From: a virus
Lineage: Duplodnaviria; Caudoviricetes
Virus record (IMG/VR): IMGVR_UViG_3300042363_001649
Location: 1-26,006 of that record
DNA: 26,006 nucleotides
Reading direction: 5' to 3' (one strand)
Positions 7,020 through 26,006 of this stretch are shown here, one piece after another. How positions within the stretch are numbered: the first letter of the stretch is position 1; every line of letters starts with the position of its first letter. The notes below the pieces were generated by a model. The model ran no database searches, was not told the DNA's origin, and was given only the letters and a program-made list of their open reading frames with translations. The translations under genes and the position numbers were made by a program.

Positions 7020-7454
7020 ATGGAAAAGAAGCAGGTTAGTTATGAATATATTTCGTTTATAGTGGATCTCTTAGAGCAGCGAGTATGTAAAGATTATGAC
7101 TTTATTGTAGGTGTAGGTCGTGGTGGGCTTATTCCTGCTACTATGCTAGCATATAAACTTAAAAAGAAAGTTATATCTTTCGGTATTAATACCTATAATG
7201 ATATGGTTCAAACCGACAAATATGTAATATATCAACCGATTCCAATTCCCACCAAACAATCAAAAATTCTAGTAGTAGACGATATCTGCGATACAGGGAA
7301 CACCTTTAATATTATTAGAGATATTTACTGTAAAGAAGAACACTTAGATATTGAGTTTGCTTCTTTATTTGTAAAAGATAGTAAGTCTCATCTTGTTGAT
7401 TATTACGGGCTCTCTGTTTCGGATGGTATCTGGTTGGATTTTCCGTGGGATTAA
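7020..7454 (+). CDS. Type I phosphoribosyltransferase (Gpt/xanthine-guanine PRTase-like)
   Basis: GVGRGGLIPA, PRPP-binding loop ILVVDDICDTGNT, C-terminal WLDFPWD; upstream TTGATT-16-TATAGT. Confidence 0.88.
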   Translation: MEKKQVSYEYISFIVDLLEQRVCKDYDFIVGVGRGGLIPATMLAYKLKKKVISFGINTYNDMVQTDKYVIYQPIPIPTKQSKILVVDDICDTGNTFNIIRDIYCKEEHLDIEFASLFVKDSKSHLVDYYGLSVSDGIWLDFPWD

Positions 7455-14050: not shown

Positions 14051-14080
14051 TTGAATTACCTATGGAACTACTATATAATA
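14051..14080 (+). promoter_or_regulatory. Promoter of the modification cluster: TTGAAT-17-TATAAT containing the GGAAC early motif
   Basis: TTGAAT 14051-14056; GGAACTACTATATAATA 14064-14080; ATG at 14086 with the same spacing as the early cassettes. Confidence 0.75.
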
Positions 14081-14085
14081 ACTTT

Positions 14086-14889
14086 ATGTTAGTATCGCAC
14101 GAAACTCCAATTAGCTTCTTAGATCAATCTAGAGCGTATAATGATTTTGACTATGCCTTAGTTCATCTTTTTGAAACACACCCTGAATATTACTCCTTCT
14201 TTAAGAGTAGCTTACTTCTAGGTCGCGAGGTTCTTCTTGATAATTCTATTTTCGAGCTGAAAGAAGCGTTCGACCCAGACCGGTATGCAAAGTATATTGA
14301 AGAGTTAAAGCCGACGTATTTCATTGTACCGGATGTCCTTGAAGATGCTGCTGCGACAGTTAATTCATATCTTAGTTTTAGAGAAAAATATTCACATCTA
14401 CCAGGTATGTGGATTGGTGCTGTGCAAGGTAAGAATTATGATCAAATCGTAGAGTGTTATAGAGTCATGTCTGGATTTGCAGACTATATTGCTATTTCGT
14501 TTGACTTTTCCTGGTATCAGGAAATTGGCTTATCGCAGAGTGCAGATCCTAATCTAAGAAAGCTTGAGCGTATGTGTGATGGTAGGCAGAAGCTTATTCA
14601 AATGCTTATTAAGGATGGTATTTGGAATCACAAGAAGCCTCACCACTTGCTTGGATGCTCCTTAGCTAAGGAATTCGCAGCTTATAAAGACATTCCAAGT
14701 ATTAGATCTTGCGATACTTCTAACCCTGTTGTTGCAGGCATTGTAGGTAAAACGTATATTAAGGATGTAGGTCTTAGAGAAAAGCCAAGTGTTCTTCTAG
14801 CTGATCTTATTGATCAACAACTCGATAGCCGACAGCAGCATGATATTTGGTACAACGTTAATGAATTTAAAGCTATCGTTGGGCGATGA
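14086..14889 (+). CDS. dpdA: TGT-fold 7-deazaguanine transglycosylase-like protein (DpdA family, probably DpdA3-like)
   Basis: TGT-like motifs in order: LLDNSIFEL, IVPDV, GAVQG, YIAIS, PHHLLG, SCDTSNP; no CxCxxC zinc motif; next to queF. Confidence 0.75.
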   Translation: MLVSHETPISFLDQSRAYNDFDYALVHLFETHPEYYSFFKSSLLLGREVLLDNSIFELKEAFDPDRYAKYIEELKPTYFIVPDVLEDAAATVNSYLSFREKYSHLPGMWIGAVQGKNYDQIVECYRVMSGFADYIAISFDFSWYQEIGLSQSADPNLRKLERMCDGRQKLIQMLIKDGIWNHKKPHHLLGCSLAKEFAAYKDIPSIRSCDTSNPVVAGIVGKTYIKDVGLREKPSVLLADLIDQQLDSRQQHDIWYNVNEFKAIVGR

Positions 14890-15449
14890 AGTGGGCAGCA
14901 TTATTCTCACAAACAGGTTCGGAGATTTGTAACCTATCAGAAAAGCTGGACTACTATCCAGATCTAGTTATATCTGATAATACCAACGAAGCAAATAAAG
15001 TTGATTCAAGAATCGAGCTTAATTGTAAAAAGCTTCTTTGGAGAAAATATAAGGGATTAACGAAAGAAGAAAAGATTGATTATTATAGAATACATTTACA
15101 AGGATATGATATCGTAACTCTTCATGGCTGGCTTAATATTGTACCAGCAGAAATATGTAACGAGTTTAAAATCTATAACGGTCACCCTGGTCTTATCAAC
15201 TATTACCCAGACTTAAAAGGTAAAGACCCACAAATTAGAGCATGGGAAAATATTTCGAATTATCAATTCGTAGGCAGTGTTATTCATAAAGTGACACCTG
15301 GTGTAGATGAGGGTCCTATTATTTGTTATAAGAAGGTAAGTTCGAATTGTTGTATTGGTTTAGATTCTACTTTCGGTATTTTAAAACACACATCGCTTGA
15401 TTCTTGGGTTGATTTCTTTAACAATAAACGATATAATATTATATGCTAA
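14886..15449 (+). CDS. dpdN: PurN-like formyltransferase (DpdN-like, putative preQ1 formyltransferase)
   Basis: ALFSQTGSEI, LHGWLNIVP, IYNGHPGL..YP.LKG and GSVIHKVTPGVDEGPII; ATGA-coupled to the dpdA-like gene. Confidence 0.75.
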   Translation: MKWAALFSQTGSEICNLSEKLDYYPDLVISDNTNEANKVDSRIELNCKKLLWRKYKGLTKEEKIDYYRIHLQGYDIVTLHGWLNIVPAEICNEFKIYNGHPGLINYYPDLKGKDPQIRAWENISNYQFVGSVIHKVTPGVDEGPIICYKKVSSNCCIGLDSTFGILKHTSLDSWVDFFNNKRYNIIC

Positions 15450-16048
15450 TTAGTTTTTCTGGCGCACAGTCAACAGGTAAGAGCACATTACTAAAGGTAT
15501 GGCAAGAGGCTTTACCTGAGTGGGATTATATTCCTGAGGTTACTAGACTGGTTAAACGTGAATACGATCTACCAATTAATGAGGATGGAAATGATCTAAC
15601 ACAAACTATGATAATGGGTGAGCATCTACGTAATGCTTTCGCAAAGAGAGAGAAGCATGCTATTTTAGATAGATGCTCTCTTGATGGGCTTGTATATACG
15701 CACTGGCTTTGTGATAATAAAAAGGTATCAATGGGAGCATATTCTCATGCTAGGTATGTTTTTGATAGTACAATTGAAAAATATGATCTTATCATTTATA
15801 CATCACCAGAAGATGTGCCTGTAGTAGATGATGGTGAGAGAAGCATTAATGTAAAATTTAGAGAAGAAATTATTGAATTATTCGAACAATATCTAACTAC
15901 TATACCTGAACGAAAACTTCTCAGGGTTAGAGGTGATGTAAGACAGCGTATTGATCAGATAGGTATTGCATTTGAACAGCTTGGTATGGGTAACTACAGC
16001 CCTTTTACCTTCAATAGATCTTTTTTTCGTCCTATCTCTTGTAATTAA
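15443..16048 (+). CDS. P-loop nucleotide kinase (AAA_28/NadR-kinase/dNMP-kinase-like)
   Basis: Walker A GAQSTGKST at the N-terminus, ILDRCSLD and DDGER; own promoter TTGATT(15409)-17-TATAAT(15432). Confidence 0.8.
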   Translation: MLISFSGAQSTGKSTLLKVWQEALPEWDYIPEVTRLVKREYDLPINEDGNDLTQTMIMGEHLRNAFAKREKHAILDRCSLDGLVYTHWLCDNKKVSMGAYSHARYVFDSTIEKYDLIIYTSPEDVPVVDDGERSINVKFREEIIELFEQYLTTIPERKLLRVRGDVRQRIDQIGIAFEQLGMGNYSPFTFNRSFFRPISCN

Positions 16049-16082
16049 CTTGCAGAACTAACAATAGAATATAAAATAAATT

Positions 16083-17018
16083 ATGGCATCAAAAAAGAAA
16101 CTAGATAATTCAGCAATAGGTAGGCATTTAGGTAAATCATCTGCGTATGTTTCAAGCTACGATCCTACTCTATTGGTAAAAGAACCAAGACAGTCAAATA
16201 GAACCCATCTCAACATCATTGAAGCAAATCTACCTTTTAGAGGATTTGATGCATGGAATGGTTATGAGGTAACTGGACTTACTAATAACGGGCTACCGGT
16301 CACTGGTATTTGTAAGTTTGTGTATCCATGTTCAAGCAAGTATATAGTAGAATCTAAATCGGTAAAACTTTACTTTAATTCTTTTAGTATGAGTAAGCTC
16401 GGCGATACGGCAGAAGAAGTACTAAATGAGATTAAGGTCCGTGCTATTAAAGATCTTTCTGATCTGGTTGAAGCTCAAGTTGAGGTTAGTGTTTTGTCAA
16501 ATTATGAAGCTCTCTCCAACGATGTGATTCCACTTGTAGAATGGGGTCACTTACGTGAAGTAGAAGACTCATATATTACTCTGGAAGATGAGTATCCTGT
16601 ATCGGGAGTAATTTTTGATAAATATACGGAATCTCCTGAGGTTTTAGAAGTTATAGACTCTGTAGTAGGTAAAGAAAAATATCATAGCTCGCTGCTAAGA
16701 TCACTATGCAGAATTACATCACAGCCAGATACCGGGGACGTATATATATATATTGAAGGAAGTAAGACAGTTGATCCTATATCTCTTCTTAAATATATTA
16801 TTTCGTTTAGAGACGAGAATCATTTTCATGAAGAGATCTGCGAGGCAATTTACACTCGGTTGTGGGAATTATTACAGCCTGAAAAACTAGCTGTAAAGTG
16901 TTTGTATGCTCGTAGAGGAGGTTGGGATATTAATCCCGAACGCGTCTCAGAAGAGAGTCTTTTGCATTATAGTTTAAGTAGTTCTAATATGATACATGTA
17001 AAAAATCCAAGACAGTAA
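16083..17018 (+). CDS. queF: NADPH-dependent 7-cyano-7-deazaguanine (preQ0) reductase QueF, bimodular type
   Basis: DAWNGYE, QueF motif IVESKSVKLYFNSF, catalytic LRSLCRITSQPDTG, FHEEICE and YARRGGWDINP. Confidence 0.93.
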   Translation: MASKKKLDNSAIGRHLGKSSAYVSSYDPTLLVKEPRQSNRTHLNIIEANLPFRGFDAWNGYEVTGLTNNGLPVTGICKFVYPCSSKYIVESKSVKLYFNSFSMSKLGDTAEEVLNEIKVRAIKDLSDLVEAQVEVSVLSNYEALSNDVIPLVEWGHLREVEDSYITLEDEYPVSGVIFDKYTESPEVLEVIDSVVGKEKYHSSLLRSLCRITSQPDTGDVYIYIEGSKTVDPISLLKYIISFRDENHFHEEICEAIYTRLWELLQPEKLAVKCLYARRGGWDINPERVSEESLLHYSLSSSNMIHVKNPRQ

Positions 17019-17033
17019 ATAACAGCTTTTTTG

Positions 17034-17783
17034 TCACAATGAATCCTCACACGGTAGTGTCCAGCCGTGTGAGGATTTTTGTAGGTTCTGTTTAAGATGA
17101 AAAACATCAACCTTATAAAGTTTTTTCCATTGAGTGAATGTTAGTGATAGATTCTCTCCAGTTTCTTTTTTTTGTAGGGTTATTTTATCTTTGCTTAGAG
17201 TTTTACTTATTTTATCGTTTATATTCTTTTTAAATTCTTCGGTTCTATTAAGATGAATATTTTTAACTCTAATAGAATTTTTTTTACTTCTTTCTTTTAA
17301 TTCTTCACTAGTCATTTTTTCCCTTTTAATTTTTTTTGCTATTATAGATTTTTTGATCCTATTTTCTTTAATTAACATCTGTTCTTCAATAGTTTTTTTG
17401 AGAAAAGTCTGTCTTCCTTTAGCTGCAGCGTCTTTCATAATATCTGGATTTAATTTCTTTGTCTCTAACTCTCTAGACTTAATTTTTCTACGCTCTTCAT
17501 CAGAGTATTTACCCAGAGTAAACCCGCCCGTTCCTCCTTTAGTAAAGTTAAAGCAATCATTTTGATGAAAGGTTTTATACATTTCAATGTAGTGTACTTC
17601 TCTCTCATCTAAAATAGTATTATTGTCTATATTTTCTAAAATTACATATTCATAACGTTCTGGATTATTTTTAAATAGTTTTAAAATATGCTTGCCGTGA
17701 GGTAAGTAGTCCTTATCGTTTTTAGTTTTACCTATATAAACAATTTTTTGCTTTAGTTTATCTTTTATACCGTAAATTCTCAT
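17034..17783 (-). CDS. GIY-YIG homing endonuclease (Seg-like, free-standing)
   Basis: N-terminal IYGI...VYIGKT, LDEREVHYI and FNFTKGGTGG; basic C-terminal half; very AT-rich. Confidence 0.85.
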   Translation of the reverse strand: MRIYGIKDKLKQKIVYIGKTKNDKDYLPHGKHILKLFKNNPERYEYVILENIDNNTILDEREVHYIEMYKTFHQNDCFNFTKGGTGGFTLGKYSDEERRKIKSRELETKKLNPDIMKDAAAKGRQTFLKKTIEEQMLIKENRIKKSIIAKKIKREKMTSEELKERSKKNSIRVKNIHLNRTEEFKKNINDKISKTLSKDKITLQKKETGENLSLTFTQWKKLYKVDVFHLKQNLQKSSHGWTLPCEDSL

Positions 17784-20190: not shown

Positions 20191-22872
20191 ATGAGTATTC
20201 GTTACGGAAATAAAGTTGGACCGTTAGTCTCACGTAAGTCTTCTTTTTTTAAAAAGGATAGATTTGATCGACTGCGTATTAAACAACCAACAGCAGCAGC
20301 AGCAACTCCAGCCACACCGTCTCCATGGGTTCGTCCAGCTGATTGGCTAACAATGCCGACTATAACATCATCTGATGAAAAAATAGCTTTGTTGATGCCT
20401 GTATATCCTCAAGGATCTAACTTTCTTGCTTTTACAATATCTGGAGCATATACAGTTGATTGGGGTGATGGTGTAACAGAAAATGTTGCATCTGGTGTTA
20501 AAGCTCAACATGAATATTCATATACCGACCCAGATTTAAATGCCACCGTTACAAGTGATGGTTATAAAATGGCAGTTGTAGTCATTACTCCTCAAGCTGG
20601 TCAAAATATAACAAGTGTAGACTTTAACCAAAAGTATGCACAAGCAGGATCTACATTTCCTGATTCTTCTCCTATATTAGAGATAGTTTTATCTTGTCCA
20701 AATTTAACAAGTGGAACGATAGGAGGACTTTTTGAAACTGGTACATTTTGCGAAAATTTGCTTAGCGTAAAACTTGTTAATGGTGGGTTATTGACTAATT
20801 TTACTAGATTTTTTGCTTATTTAACAAGTTTAACAAATGTTGAAATAGGAGTCATTTCTAATATTACGAATTCATCAAGCATGTTTCATAGTTGCCGTTC
20901 TTTAACTACTGTACCATTATTTGATACCGCCTCTGTTACAGATATGACTACTATGTTTAGCAATTGTATTGCTCTTACAACCGTACCACTATTTAATACT
21001 GCAGTCGTTACTAATATGAGTAATATGTTTAATGGTTGCACTTCTCTTACAACTGTACCGCTTTTTAATACCGCCAGCGTTACTAATATGAGTAGTATGT
21101 TTAGTGGTTGCACTTCTCTTACAACTGTACCGCTTTTTAATACCGCCAGCGTTACTAATATGAGTAGTATGTTTTTTGGTTGCAGCGCTCTTGCAACTGT
21201 ACCGCTTTTTAATACCGCCAGCGTTACTAATATGAGTAGTATGTTTCAGAATTGTAGCGCTCTTACAACCGTACCGTTATTCAATACATCAGCTGTTACT
21301 AATATGAGTAATATGTTTAATGGTTGCACTTCTCTTACAACTGTACCGCTTTTTAATACCGCCAGCGTTACTAATATGACTGGTATGTTTCAGAATTGTA
21401 GCGCTCTTACAACCGTACCGTTATTCAATACAGTTGCTGTTACGATCATGGGAGCGTTCGGTAATGGCATGTTTCAGGGTTGTACAGCTCTCACAAGCGT
21501 ACCACTATTTAATACTGCTGCTGTTACTAATATGACTGCCATGTTTAGTGGTTGTACGGCTCTCACAAGTGTACCGCTATTCAATACTGCCGCTGTAACT
21601 AATATGTCTAGTATGTTTAGTAACTGCCGTTCCATCACAAGCGTACCACTTTTTAATACTGAAAATGTTACTAATATGGGATTACCTGTAAGCAATGGCA
21701 TGTTTAGCAATTGTTCAGCTCTCAAAAGTGTACCACTGTTTAATACTATAAAGGTTACAGATATGACTGCCATGTTTCTTGGTTGTACGGCTCTCACAAG
21801 TGTACCGCTATTCAATACTGCCGCTGTAACTAATATGTCTAGTATGTTTAGTAACTGCCGTTCCATCACAAGTGTACCGCTATTCAATACTGCCGCTGTA
21901 ACTAATATGTCTAGTATGTTTCAGAGTTGTGTATCTCTCACAAGTGTACCACTATTCAATACTGTCGCTGTAACTAATATGAGTAGTATGTTTAATGCCT
22001 GTACTACGCTTAAAACTGTACCATTATTTAATACTGCCTCTGTTACAGATATGACTAGTATGTTTAGCAATTGTACTACTCTATATACTATACCATTTTT
22101 TAATACTGCTGCTGTTACTAATATGAATAGTATGTTTAATAATTGTATAAATCTTATTAATATCCCATTATTAATTTCAGGAGCAGGTACAACTACTAGT
22201 AAATTTGCCACTACGTTTAGTAACTGTATGAATCTTACAAGAGCAGCATTAAATGGTTCTGAATATTCAATAAGTTATAGTGGTTGTAAATTATCAAAAG
22301 AAGAATTAGAATCTATCTTCAATTATCTAGATACAATAGGTGCTGCTTCTCAAACAATAACAGTAACAAACAATTGGGGAGCGCCGACACCTGTAACTCT
22401 TACAGGAACTACAACAGCTGGAAGCACAACAATAAGCATGGCAAACACCACTGGTATTGCTGTAGGTATGCAAATTACAGGAACAGGATCGCCACTTACT
22501 ACAGCAAGAGCTGTAACATTCACAGACGCTGGAGATCTAGTCAACTTAGCATCACATGGTTTAAGTAATGGAGATGAAGTTTCTTTTGCAACTAGAGTAA
22601 CAACGACTGGTATTGTTATTAATACGATTTATTATGTAGTTAATGCTACGGCAGGTACATTTCAAGTAGCAGCAACTCTAGGTGGTCCAGCATTAGCATT
22701 AACGACAAACGGTTCTGGAACTTTACGCTATCGTACAGAAGTTGTATCAATTAATCCCAACGTAAGCATCACAGTATCACGACAAATGGCTGCGGGAGGT
22801 GCAAATAGTTTAACATTTAGACAATTAAGAACTGGAACAGCCCTATTAAAAGGCTGGGCAGTAACAGCATAA
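20191..22872 (+). CDS. Putative receptor-binding/tail protein with BspA/DUF285-type leucine-rich repeats
   Basis: N-terminal WVRPADW and YTVDWGDG (PKD-like); about 18 x 24-aa repeats VTNMSSMFxxCxxLTTVPLFNTAx; Thr/Gly-rich beta-barrel-like C-terminus. Confidence 0.85.
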   Translation: MSIRYGNKVGPLVSRKSSFFKKDRFDRLRIKQPTAAAATPATPSPWVRPADWLTMPTITSSDEKIALLMPVYPQGSNFLAFTISGAYTVDWGDGVTENVASGVKAQHEYSYTDPDLNATVTSDGYKMAVVVITPQAGQNITSVDFNQKYAQAGSTFPDSSPILEIVLSCPNLTSGTIGGLFETGTFCENLLSVKLVNGGLLTNFTRFFAYLTSLTNVEIGVISNITNSSSMFHSCRSLTTVPLFDTASVTDMTTMFSNCIALTTVPLFNTAVVTNMSNMFNGCTSLTTVPLFNTASVTNMSSMFSGCTSLTTVPLFNTASVTNMSSMFFGCSALATVPLFNTASVTNMSSMFQNCSALTTVPLFNTSAVTNMSNMFNGCTSLTTVPLFNTASVTNMTGMFQNCSALTTVPLFNTVAVTIMGAFGNGMFQGCTALTSVPLFNTAAVTNMTAMFSGCTALTSVPLFNTAAVTNMSSMFSNCRSITSVPLFNTENVTNMGLPVSNGMFSNCSALKSVPLFNTIKVTDMTAMFLGCTALTSVPLFNTAAVTNMSSMFSNCRSITSVPLFNTAAVTNMSSMFQSCVSLTSVPLFNTVAVTNMSSMFNACTTLKTVPLFNTASVTDMTSMFSNCTTLYTIPFFNTAAVTNMNSMFNNCINLINIPLLISGAGTTTSKFATTFSNCMNLTRAALNGSEYSISYSGCKLSKEELESIFNYLDTIGAASQTITVTNNWGAPTPVTLTGTTTAGSTTISMANTTGIAVGMQITGTGSPLTTARAVTFTDAGDLVNLASHGLSNGDEVSFATRVTTTGIVINTIYYVVNATAGTFQVAATLGGPALALTTNGSGTLRYRTEVVSINPNVSITVSRQMAAGGANSLTFRQLRTGTALLKGWAVTA
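20863..22170 (+). repeat. Intragenic 72-nt (24-aa) tandem repeat array, about 18 units
   Basis: 21007-21091 is identical to 21295-21379 (offset 4 x 72); 21532-21641 and 21763-21872 differ at 2 nt. Confidence 0.9.
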
Positions 22873-23588: not shown

Positions 23589-24368
23589 ATGAGGAATAAA
23601 ACTTACGAGCTTTATATAACAAAAAATAACGTTACGGGATGTGTGTATGGTGGAAAACATAGTTATACAAATAAAAGAGGAGTATATTTAGGATCGGGAT
23701 TTAGACTTAAAAGAGCGTTTAAAAAATACGGAAAGGAAAATTTCTCTGTACGTGTACTTCGCCTACAATTAACCAATGCAGAAGATATGAATGTTAAGGA
23801 AATTAGACTTATACGCTTATTAAAATATGTATTTAAAGATAAATGCTATAATATTCATAGAGGTGGTAGCGGAGGCGATTATTATAAGTATCTCACTCCT
23901 GAAGAAAGACTAAAAGTAAATTTACGTATTAGTGAGAGTAAGAAGCTACAGTATAGTAGAGGAGAGACAGATGCGCAAAAATTAGGCCATAAAAAGCAAT
24001 CTACAACTTTAAAGGAAAAAAATAAAAATGATTTAGAATACCGTAAACGGATGCTAGATATATGGCGTAGAAAAGGTAGAGTGTTATCTGATAGAGTAAC
24101 GGCTCATGGATTAACAGCTAAGGAGTTGGAGCGTAATTTAAATAACGGCATAAAACAGACACGACTCTATAATATATTAATATCATACCCATCAGGTAAT
24201 AGCGAAACTATTACTATAAATTCAAAGAAATTTAAAACAATTTACAAAACAGACGATAGTATGTTTTCTACCTTACGTAAAACTGGAATATACACAGTAA
24301 ACATACGACGATCAACAACTAAACATCCTTTCCCTATAGGCACACAACTTACAATTAAATACACATAA
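23589..24368 (+). CDS. GIY-YIG homing endonuclease (Seg-like)
   Basis: YELYITKN..TG.VYGGKH, YLGSG..LKRAFKKYGKENF and CYNIHRGGSGG; GACTAAATA at 23575-23583. Confidence 0.88.
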   Translation: MRNKTYELYITKNNVTGCVYGGKHSYTNKRGVYLGSGFRLKRAFKKYGKENFSVRVLRLQLTNAEDMNVKEIRLIRLLKYVFKDKCYNIHRGGSGGDYYKYLTPEERLKVNLRISESKKLQYSRGETDAQKLGHKKQSTTLKEKNKNDLEYRKRMLDIWRRKGRVLSDRVTAHGLTAKELERNLNNGIKQTRLYNILISYPSGNSETITINSKKFKTIYKTDDSMFSTLRKTGIYTVNIRRSTTKHPFPIGTQLTIKYT

Positions 24369-24438: not shown

Positions 24439-25914
24439 CTAAAAATATACGTTCTGAGCTGCTGGCGAGAACGCGGTACCTAATCCCTGAACAATAACAA
24501 CGTGGTAGTAGAGGTTAGCACCGAAGATGTTATCAACGACACCATAACGTGTAAGCAAGCCTACGCGTGGTGCGAAGTCGTTCGGACCAATTGTTCTCTG
24601 TACCATGATAGGAATGTAAGGGCAGTAGATGATACCTGTATCGTAGAACTCTGAACCCTTGTAACCAAGGAGAGCGTACTCGATACCAGTTGTAGGTACT
24701 AGGCCAGAATAGTTCTGATTACCATAAACGCCGGTATTTTGTACTTCAGTACGAGTATCACGGTATACCGAGAATCTTCCACCAACGGAGCCTACCTTAG
24801 CAACACCAACTGGTTGTGTTGAAACGTCACCTTGTACAGGTACCCACTGGAATTCAGGGAGCATCTCAAGGATCGCGCAAACACGTGGTGTAGCAACGAT
24901 GAAGTTAGCAGCACCGCGTCTGTTACGAACTGCGATTCTGTTTGCTTCAATGATAAGCTTTTGATAGAAGTCTCTGTTTCTCTCAACGAGCCATCTGCCG
25001 TCTGCAGAAGCAGGGGACCAGAATGAGTAACCAGCACCTGGACCACCGTTAAGTGCGGACTGGATCATTCTTACGATCATTTCACGGTCGATTTCTGCTT
25101 GGATCTCATACGACATAGCGTTTGTGATCTCAGCATCGATATCGATACCGTTCATGTTCTTAAGGTCTTGCTCTAATTCAACGGACCAGCGAGCGCCAAG
25201 TCTGCGAGTACCAGCTTCAACAGCGGTCTTCTCAAACTTAACCTCTACTTGTGGGATGTTTCCGGTAATTTCAAACGCTGACAAGATTTGAGCAACGCCC
25301 TGATCTTGTTGTGCGAATGACCAGACACCAGTAGCACCCGAAAGTCTTTGTGAAGACGAACCAGTGAAACGTGTGTCGAGGAATTGGTAGCCAAGCTCTG
25401 TATTACCATTATAATTGGTACTACCTGCACCAATAGGATTACCTGGACCACCAACAGTTGCACCTGAGGTGTATGAGGTACCATCAACTCCCTGACCTAA
25501 GCCAGTTGAGTTGTACTGATAACGAAGAGCGAAAGCAAGACCAACCGGACCGGACATAGGCTGAACGCCTACGATCTCGTTGGAGATAAGCTCAGGAAAG
25601 GTACGACGGATCATCGGAATGAGGATCTTAGGAAGACGAGCGTCACCAGGAGCATAGTTGTCACCGGAGTTTACAACACCATTAACTGGGCTGTATTGAC
25701 CACCTGCGTTACCACCGAATGCGCTGCTTTGGCTGGACTCTTGAATGCACCATTGTTCTTGGTTCTCAAGAAGAATAGCGGTATTCAAGCGGCTGTTTTC
25801 GTCTTTGATTTCCTTAACCGAATCAGAAGAATAGTTAAGAACTGGAGCCCACTTTTCAAGTAGTGCTTCTGCTCTTGATCTATCTACAAATGATTGTGTC
25901 GGACGAATTTTCAT
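24439..25914 (-). CDS. gp23: T4 gp23-type major capsid protein
   Basis: LLEKWAPVL, TAILLENQE, LIPMIRRTFP.LI..EIVGVQPMSGPVGLAFALR, WSVELEQDLK..NGID, EIQAEIDRE, YCPYIP and PRVGLLTRYG; ATG 25914 preferred over TTG 25935. Confidence 0.97.
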   Translation of the reverse strand: MKIRPTQSFVDRSRAEALLEKWAPVLNYSSDSVKEIKDENSRLNTAILLENQEQWCIQESSQSSAFGGNAGGQYSPVNGVVNSGDNYAPGDARLPKILIPMIRRTFPELISNEIVGVQPMSGPVGLAFALRYQYNSTGLGQGVDGTSYTSGATVGGPGNPIGAGSTNYNGNTELGYQFLDTRFTGSSSQRLSGATGVWSFAQQDQGVAQILSAFEITGNIPQVEVKFEKTAVEAGTRRLGARWSVELEQDLKNMNGIDIDAEITNAMSYEIQAEIDREMIVRMIQSALNGGPGAGYSFWSPASADGRWLVERNRDFYQKLIIEANRIAVRNRRGAANFIVATPRVCAILEMLPEFQWVPVQGDVSTQPVGVAKVGSVGGRFSVYRDTRTEVQNTGVYGNQNYSGLVPTTGIEYALLGYKGSEFYDTGIIYCPYIPIMVQRTIGPNDFAPRVGLLTRYGVVDNIFGANLYYHVVIVQGLGTAFSPAAQNVYF

Positions 25915-25977
25915 ATTGCTTTTATTTCCTTTCAAAAAAACTCAGGTCACTGAGACCTCATTGTTCAGGGTGAAAAT

Positions 25978-25985
25978 TATTTATA
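25978..25985 (-). promoter_or_regulatory. T4-type late promoter TATAAATA upstream of the capsid gene
   Basis: + strand TATTTATA at 25978-25985; followed on the - strand by a hairpin (AGGTC/GACCT, 25944-25958) and AAGGA before the ATG. Confidence 0.7.
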
Positions 25986-26006
25986 TCGTTGTAATTCTGA
26001 GATATA

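Follow-up and report, generated by a model that had tools for sequence, protein, structure and literature searches.

The 26,006-nucleotide virus contig IMGVR_UViG_3300042363_001649, analysed here in its entirety (the window), comes from a T4-like myophage. Close relatives of this phage are ~200–240 kb in size, so most of the genome is absent from the window. The window carries a cassette of four co-oriented open reading frames (ORFs), encoding DpdA3, DpdN, a P-loop kinase, and QueF, through which formyl-preQ1 is predicted to take the place of guanine in the phage DNA.

14086..14889, + strand: dpdA3 (gene 1), minimal guanine transglycosylase with the fold of tRNA-guanine transglycosylase (TGT), 267 aa; homology to published DpdA3, fold, invariant residues
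14886..15449, + strand: dpdN (gene 2), PurN-like formyltransferase, 187 aa; homology to DpdN, PF00551, motifs
15443..16048, + strand: P-loop nucleoside/nucleotide kinase (gene 3), NadR/deoxynucleoside kinase/thymidylate kinase fold, 201 aa, dpdA3-linked paralogue; homology, AAA_28, fold
16083..17018, + strand: queF (gene 4), bimodular preQ0 nitrile reductase, 311 aa; homology, Pfam QueF_N and QueF

Genes 1 and 2 overlap by 4 nt (ATGA), genes 2 and 3 by 7 nt, and 34 nt separate the kinase gene from queF. The start of dpdA3 at 14086 gives 267 aa, the length of most homologues; a further in-frame ATG is at 14062. These ORF coordinates agree with the first-pass annotation, a reading of the sequence alone, which had described four adjacent co-oriented genes with two overlapping pairs. 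Its gene identities (TGT-like protein with catalytic Asp residues, PurN-like formyltransferase, P-loop kinase, and intact QueF) are borne out by homology, Pfam, motifs, and folds, as described below.

Gene products of the cassette

The product of gene 1 shares 47% identity (E 4e-75) with YP_010114477 of Flavobacterium phage immuto_2-6A and 43% with YP_009169190 of Campylobacter phage CP220, both of which are entered as DpdA3 in sheet DS1 of Cui 2023 (PMC10516641), and 25% (E 6e-11) with the DpdA3 of phiST. It matches 18 of 50,697 phage records, all from Flavobacterium immuto phages or Campylobacter phages. Pfam, NCBIfam, and PDB give no useful sequence match, and PDB searches with the protein and its profile return chance matches only. 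The AlphaFold model (predicted local distance difference test score, pLDDT, 95.4) was compared with a 40%-cluster VIA library, as was that of the kinase. It aligns with archaeal TGT 1iq8 (Z 17.8, rmsd (root-mean-square deviation) 2.9, 232 residues aligned), DpdA 7ui4 (Z 17.2, rmsd 3.0, 227 aligned), and bacterial TGT 3unt (Z 16.0, rmsd 3.1, 225 aligned); the top non-TGT match has a Z of 15.3. Judged from this model, gene 1 encodes a triosephosphate isomerase-type barrel of the TGT superfamily, and a minimal one, because only 227 of DpdA's 413 residues align. Residues D52, D83, Q114, and D210 are invariant across 122 aligned sequences. Mapped by motif order, not by superposition, they would correspond to Asp95, Asp130, His181, and Asp256 of DpdA (PMC10164549), whose three Asp are active-site residues; D52, D83, and D210 occupy equivalent places in the barrel.

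The structural zinc site CxCxxC...H is conserved in TGT and bacterial DpdA (PMC10164549). The first-pass annotation took its loss from gene 1 as a sign that bases are exchanged on free nucleotides. CxCxxC is absent from all 89 distinct DpdA3 proteins, and it is absent as well from all 23 phage DpdA1/DpdA2 control proteins, including 9g DpdA1, which is reported to insert preQ0 into DNA. Because a DNA-acting DpdA1 also lacks the motif, its absence is no evidence for a free-nucleotide substrate, and we abandon that argument. Net charge and isoelectric point, tried as proxies for DNA binding, show no difference between DpdA3 (medians −10 and 5.34) and the DpdA1/DpdA2 controls (−8 and 5.64).

The dpdN product is 44% identical over 179 aa to YP_010114479, the DpdN of Cui 2023 (PMC10516641), where its role in formylation is predicted. 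It matches Pfam Formyl_trans_N (PF00551) above cut-off (E 1.2e-7), contains the motifs SQTGS, NGHPG, and VDEG, and is flanked by dpdA3 and queF in the cassette. QueF is 44% identical to immuto QueF and is bimodular, with Pfam QueF_N (6e-30) and QueF (1.8e-21) both above cut-off. Residues C209 and D216, the NADPH motif ESKSVKLY at 90, and FHEE at 248 are present; against TIGR03138 the protein scores 230 bits, below the cut-off of 293.

The kinase shares 36% identity with immuto gp203 and 32% with CP220 gp057 and matches Pfam AAA_28 (E 7e-14). The label 'thymidylate kinase' comes from PHROG 2107 (E 1.3e-24), and Pfam Thymidylate_kin gives no match to the protein. Its model (pLDDT 88.3) is closest to NadR ribosylnicotinamide kinase 6gye (Z 18.5, rmsd 3.0, 179 aligned), followed by human deoxyguanosine kinase 2ocp (Z 16.4, rmsd 3.0, 179 aligned) and thymidylate kinase 2v54 (Z 15.6, rmsd 3.1, 173 aligned). 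Unlike NadR, the protein is a stand-alone 201-aa kinase domain without the adenylyltransferase domain for nicotinamide mononucleotide (NMN), and it scores 24.9 bits against a cut-off of 341, with a match spanning residues 166–309 of the NadR model only. On the predicted fold, the product of gene 3 may phosphorylate nucleosides or nucleoside monophosphates. As the fold is nearest to nucleoside kinases, either deoxyguanosine (dG) or dGMP may be the substrate. The first-pass annotation had named dGMP or GMP as the substrate of base exchange; with a kinase fold nearer to NadR and deoxyguanosine kinase than to thymidylate kinase, that substrate may instead be the nucleoside dG.

The cassette is orthologous, in the same order and on the same strand, to dpdA3, dpdN, 'thymidylate kinase', and queF of immuto_2-6A (47, 44, 36, and 44% identity, respectively); in immuto_2-6A, a 50-aa ORF lies between dpdA3 and dpdN. 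By gene content it is thus a further member of the known DpdA3/DpdN system and is not itself new. Immuto_2-6A DNA contains no dG, only 7-(formylamino)methyl-7-deazaguanine (fdPreQ1), and full replacement of dG is also described for CP220 and phiST (Cui 2023, PMC10516641). By analogy with immuto_2-6A, the DNA of the present phage very probably carries fdPreQ1, and the link to this base drawn in the first-pass annotation agrees with the orthology and gene order.

Several differences set the two phages apart. The window cassette lies amid baseplate and T4-like capsid genes, away from folE, queD, queE, and queC, and has no MazG-type gene beside it. Immuto_2-6A has one kinase, whereas relatives of the window phage have a second kinase paralogue. 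In addition, fdPreQ1 has been measured in immuto DNA and is predicted for the window phage. In CP220 (Firehammervirus, dADG system), dpdA3 (43%) is followed directly by a kinase of the same family (32%), and a second kinase paralogue lies beside the dUTPase gene; CP220 differs in having no QueF or DpdN listed, in its product, dADG, and in an HD-domain/P-loop gene upstream. PhiST (Cellulophaga, dDG system, DpdA3 and DpdL) has the distant DpdA3 (25%) with an adjoining P-loop kinase and MazG gene, but the kinase is of another family (AAA_18) and the product is 7-deazaguanine. The post-replicative insertases DpdA1, DpdA2, and bacterial DpdA (9g, phiSM, VH7D, S. Montevideo 7UI4) share the TGT fold and the layout of catalytic Asp residues with DpdA3, and phage DpdA1 and DpdA2 share the lack of CxCxxC. 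They differ in giving partial substitution and in their neighbours, among which are genes for a sliding clamp or ParB-like protein but none for a kinase.

As the first-pass annotation had stated, the precursor genes for FolE, QueD, QueE, and QueC are absent from the window: none of its 38 ORFs matches these families in Pfam, and tblastn with immuto FolE, QueD, and QueE finds nothing in it. QueC and FolE are each present in 4/5 related contigs, the missing contig being 41% complete, and QueD and QueE are found in relatives G001, G003, and G004. By analogy, the four genes likely sit elsewhere in this phage genome.

Kinase genes beside dpdA3

We gathered 143 dpdA3 loci with DpdA3 queries and from GenBank records, a set that may hold too few of the most distant DpdA3 relatives. 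Of these loci, 127 have a kinase-type gene no more than 3.5 kb from dpdA3, and at 13 of the 16 others the sequence stops within 1.5 kb downstream. Among the 121 scorable loci (at least 2.5 kb downstream), 118 have a kinase by the same distance (117 without DUF3310), compared with 100 for DpdN and 106 for QueF. Counted by DpdA3 cluster, a kinase is present in 14/16 at 60% identity and 6/8 at 50%. In contrast, 0/23 DpdA1/DpdA2-type control loci have one. We disregarded a P-loop pattern upstream of the annotated start in control L259. At 2.7 kb from dpdA1, 9g gp07 has a C-terminus that by eye is presumably DUF3310-like and could be a hole in the control; in PHROGs it matches only unknown and ATPase families. 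The co-occurrence of kinase and DpdA3, which the first-pass annotation had proposed as a check, holds strongly.

All three phages of measured full substitution have a kinase beside dpdA3 or two genes from it (immuto gp203, CP220 gp057, and phiST CGPG_00066). The reverse search, from the kinase, gave 469 relatives; among the best 80 of these, 71 have dpdA3, and in the remaining 9 the sequence stops within 1.8 kb upstream. Since 26 of the same best 80 have no DpdN, the kinase tracks dpdA3, not dpdN. In Campylobacter phages, it tracks dpdA3 without queF.

By sequence families, the dpdA3-linked slot is filled by four unrelated kinase families: AAA_28, AAA_18, thymidylate kinase-like, and DUF3310. 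CGPG_00066 of phiST, directly upstream of dpdA3, is an AAA_18 protein (Pfam E 9.4e-7, above cut-off). Cui 2023 (PMC10516641) dismissed it as not shared, while sheet DS8 of the same work lists two homologues, which, by their accession-number ranges, would belong to two DpdA3/DpdL phages of sheet DS1. An AAA_18 kinase also precedes dpdA3 in phage MA9V-3 and is fused to DpdL at four loci (L128–L131). In Bacillus phage BSP7, a thymidylate kinase-like gene (PHROG 761, E 9.5e-16) overlaps dpdA3 and is followed by the DNA polymerase gene. Rhizobium phage RHph_I1_18 has a DpdA3 with a C-terminal DUF3310 fusion, and at locus L139 DUF3310 and MazG genes lie directly upstream of dpdA3. DUF3310 has been tied to the T7 gp1.7 nucleotide kinase (PMC10700055); it is the weakest of the four families, because the domain is common in phages.

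The window-phage family also has a longer, core AAA_28 paralogue, which provides a control. Complete genomes with dpdA3 (G004, G008, and G024) have two kinase paralogues, whereas complete genomes without dpdA3 (G009, G010, and G038) have the core paralogue only. In a sample picked by capsid gene (80 loci, reduced to 30 of the longest contigs, 28 of which were searched), 9/28 contigs have dpdA3, and in each of the 9 the short kinase is no further than 7 kb away. The 19 contigs without dpdA3 comprise 6 with the core paralogue, 11 with none, and 2 with a short, divergent kinase. In the kinase tree, the core paralogues form a clade with 100/100 support.

The first-pass annotation regarded the kinase step as, to its knowledge, uncharacterised. 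The word 'kinase' does not occur in the main text of Cui 2023 (PMC10516641). The cassette already exists with its kinase in the characterised immuto phage, and a route in which the polymerase uses a modified dGTP had been put forward before for Campylobacter phages (Hutinet 2019, PMC6884629). A literature search, to which the bulk of subscription journals and bioRxiv supplements were closed, turned up no publication that ties DpdA3 to a kinase; the CP220 kinase may have been named already in Crippen 2019. The present analysis adds the evidence from four families and fusions, the control by paralogues, the exceptions to the linkage, and the finding that the zinc argument fails.

Possible routes to the replacement base

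From gene identities, folds, synteny, and linkage, we infer the following substrates and order of steps. FolE, QueD, QueE, and QueC, encoded elsewhere in the genome as in relatives, would supply preQ0. QueF would convert preQ0 to free preQ1, as shown for other phage QueFs. DpdA3 would exchange guanine for preQ1 on dG or dGMP via a covalent sugar–Asp210 intermediate, and DpdN, as predicted in print, would formylate the aminomethyl group at some point in this series. The linked kinase would add the phosphate that host kinases would add poorly, and the polymerase would incorporate the modified triphosphate. The base swap itself would drain the dG pool.

We consider it fairly likely that the replacement base is built in this way before replication, on free dG or dGMP, and is then phosphorylated and incorporated. 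We favour the pre-replicative route because it fits the full substitution, the failure of DpdA3 expressed without a kinase, the repeated recruitment of kinases, and the paralogue pattern. For DpdA3 phages in general, we lean slightly towards DpdA3 being not a DNA editor but a base-exchange enzyme for free deoxyguanosine or dGMP. With a kinase, recruited independently out of at least four families, it would produce 7-deazaguanine dNTPs to take the place of dGTP altogether.

Pre-replicative substitution is known from the hydroxymethyl-deoxycytidine of T4 (gp42, gp1 kinase, and gp56 dCTPase) and from Z-DNA (PurZ and a dATPase). In both, a modifying enzyme, a kinase, and a pool-cleaning hydrolase lead to full replacement. 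They differ from the route outlined here in that the base is modified or built on the nucleotide, and neither is known to use a TGT-fold exchange.

The published model is the principal alternative. Cui 2023 (PMC10516641) proposes that all such DNA marks are inserted after replication and models a DNA-binding groove on DpdN; DpdA3 would exchange guanine in newly replicated DNA, DpdN would add the formyl group to the base or to the DNA, with the kinase as an accessory recycler or supplier of nucleotides. DpdA1, DpdA2, and bacterial DpdA act on DNA, DpdA3 has their fold and catalytic Asp layout, and a DNA polymerase gene often adjoins dpdA3, as for 9g dpdA1. However, the DNA-acting DpdA1, DpdA2, and DpdA4 reach 0.1–30% of G, compared with 100% for DpdA3, and DpdA3 was inactive when expressed in Escherichia coli, in a plasmid assay where DpdA2 worked (Cui 2023, PMC10516641). 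The model also leaves unexplained why kinases of four families accompany dpdA3 and the 23 DpdA1/DpdA2 loci have none, and why the extra paralogue occurs only in dpdA3-positive complete genomes. We regard post-replicative exchange as rather unlikely.

Several further points weigh against the pre-replicative route. Its support consists of co-occurrence throughout. DpdA3 retains the catalytic layout of enzymes acting on DNA and tRNA, and neither zinc motif nor charge sets it apart from DpdA1. Most dpdA3 loci are near-copies, 17 of the 23 controls are 9g-like, and three of the four kinase profiles derive from the very neighbours that they pick up. In the kinase tree, the dpdA3-linked paralogues do not form one resolved clade (group split support 67/80). 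Three dpdA3 loci (L138, L140, and Brevundimonas phage StAshley) have no nearby kinase, which also speaks for the published model, and AAA_28 finds no match in the StAshley genome. PA5oct, entered with a DpdA3 in sheet DS1, has no nearby kinase either; we placed it among the controls, since its match to the DpdA3 profile reaches only E 0.04. Conversely, short kinases occur without dpdA3 in two partial contigs, G036 and G025; in G025 (42 kb), which has no dpdA3, dpdN, or queF, the divergent kinase lies at the syntenic site of the cassette (L390:12223-12777). Finally, neither MazG nor an HD dGTPase is found in the mid-sized ORFs (141/211) of the complete relative G004.

A third possibility is a route through ribonucleotides, in which a phosphoribosyltransferase joins preQ1 to phosphoribosyl pyrophosphate, or DpdA3 acts on GMP, and the kinase and the phage ribonucleotide reductase produce the deoxy triphosphate. 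The genes for a phosphoribosyltransferase, ribonucleotide reductase, and ThyX lie 3–9 kb upstream of the cassette, and a phosphoribosyltransferase gene adjoins folE in immuto-like loci.

7020..7454, + strand: type I phosphoribosyltransferase, 7 kb upstream of the cassette; PF00156; 30% identity to the phosphoribosyltransferase beside folE in immuto

Such genes also occur in the clusters of DpdA2-type phages, e.g., BUCT-ZZ01; a ribo-triphosphate would risk entry into RNA; and the phosphoribosyltransferase version gives DpdA3 no role. The route is therefore improbable. The gene at 7020..7454 is possibly accessory (purine salvage), its membership of the cassette not being shown.

The best fold matches of gene 1 and the kinase, tRNA transglycosylases and NadR, respectively, could also point to a cassette that enhances tRNA modification of the queuosine type or the salvage of nicotinamide and modifies no DNA. 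The orthologous immuto cassette goes with fully substituted DNA, and the kinase has no NMN adenylyltransferase domain, which makes this reading highly implausible.

The kinase link names a missing component, and candidate substrates, for the 100% guanine replacement by DpdA3 phages. If the pre-replicative route is correct, not every 7-deazaguanine mark in DNA would be post-replicative, as has been claimed; the TGT fold would gain a small-molecule substrate; and there would be an enzymatic route to 7-deazaguanine dNTPs, by which the G letter is rewritten in full before replication. The acyl slot would be interchangeable (formyl here; GNAT, FkbH, and amidoligase-type genes in relatives), hinting at further undescribed bases.

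Variant cassettes and other genes of the window

In some relatives, other genes take the place of dpdN. At L084 (5528-7419), L088, and L090, FkbH (HAD and GNAT) and glyoxalase-fold genes lie between dpdA3 and the kinase gene; preQ1 may there carry another acyl group. At L107 (10331-11284) and L108, dpdA3 is followed by a kinase–GNAT acetyltransferase fusion, with no dpdN, and then queF, an arrangement that predicts acetyl-preQ1 as the product. At L137 (8980-10923), the kinase gene is flanked by a GNAT gene and by one that is amidoligase-like (weak, Pfam E 0.002), and L140 (10192-10865) has amidoligase-like pieces in the vicinity of dpdA3. The DpdL phages PA5oct, ACP17, BUDD, and BUCT-ZZ01 (L253, L255, L256, L259, and L260) encode long DpdA2-like proteins and share an adjoining gene of 340–390 aa, weakly glycosyltransferase-like in two, and a glycosylated deazaguanine is a possible product. 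Cultured phages with DpdA3-like genes are BSP7, MA9V-3, StAshley (L247–L248 and L257), and Youna2 (H107).

The window contains no dGTP-removing enzyme. MazG-type genes are present in the immuto and phiST lineages, and a MazG-type pyrophosphatase gene flanks dpdA3 in phiST, at L139, and at 67/121 loci. A DUF1599-like gene of ~116 aa, absent from the window, lies between dpdN and the kinase gene at 34/140 loci (cluster 13; L236:11899-12246). Pfam DUF1599 is above cut-off in 0/5 relatives, with one weak match (E 0.009), and the Atlas clusters are 34–59% DUF1599, which we treat as a lead only. We found no paper linking DUF1599 to a dNTPase activity; the gene is a candidate pool-cleaning enzyme. 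A GMP reductase-like gene, which could drain guanine nucleotides, lies inside the cassette of G024 (L393:4108-5070) and next to queC in G004 (L243:7882-8835), below cut-off in both.

Outside the cassette, Pfam and PHROG scans identify baseplate-like, ribonucleotide reductase, ThyX, and ClpP genes; no polymerase gene is present in the window. Two further features are as follows.

14051..14079, + strand: weak sigma-70-like site TTGAAT-17-TATAAT, directly 5' of the 14086 start; 10/12 match
24439-25935: Gp23 capsid gene, T4-like

The promoter scan is at chance level, with 12 sigma-70-like sites in the region and 11.9 expected.

Directly past queF, on the opposite strand, is a homing endonuclease-like gene (17034-17783, − strand), and a second one (23589-24368, + strand) lies beside the capsid gene. 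In the 893-aa product of the ORF at 20191-22872, there are eight stretches of DUF285 repeats; its role is likely structural or adhesive. GC content is 45–47% at positions 1–2000 and 25000–26006 and about 35% elsewhere, and the left end of the window has a strong AT skew and short ORFs without assigned function.

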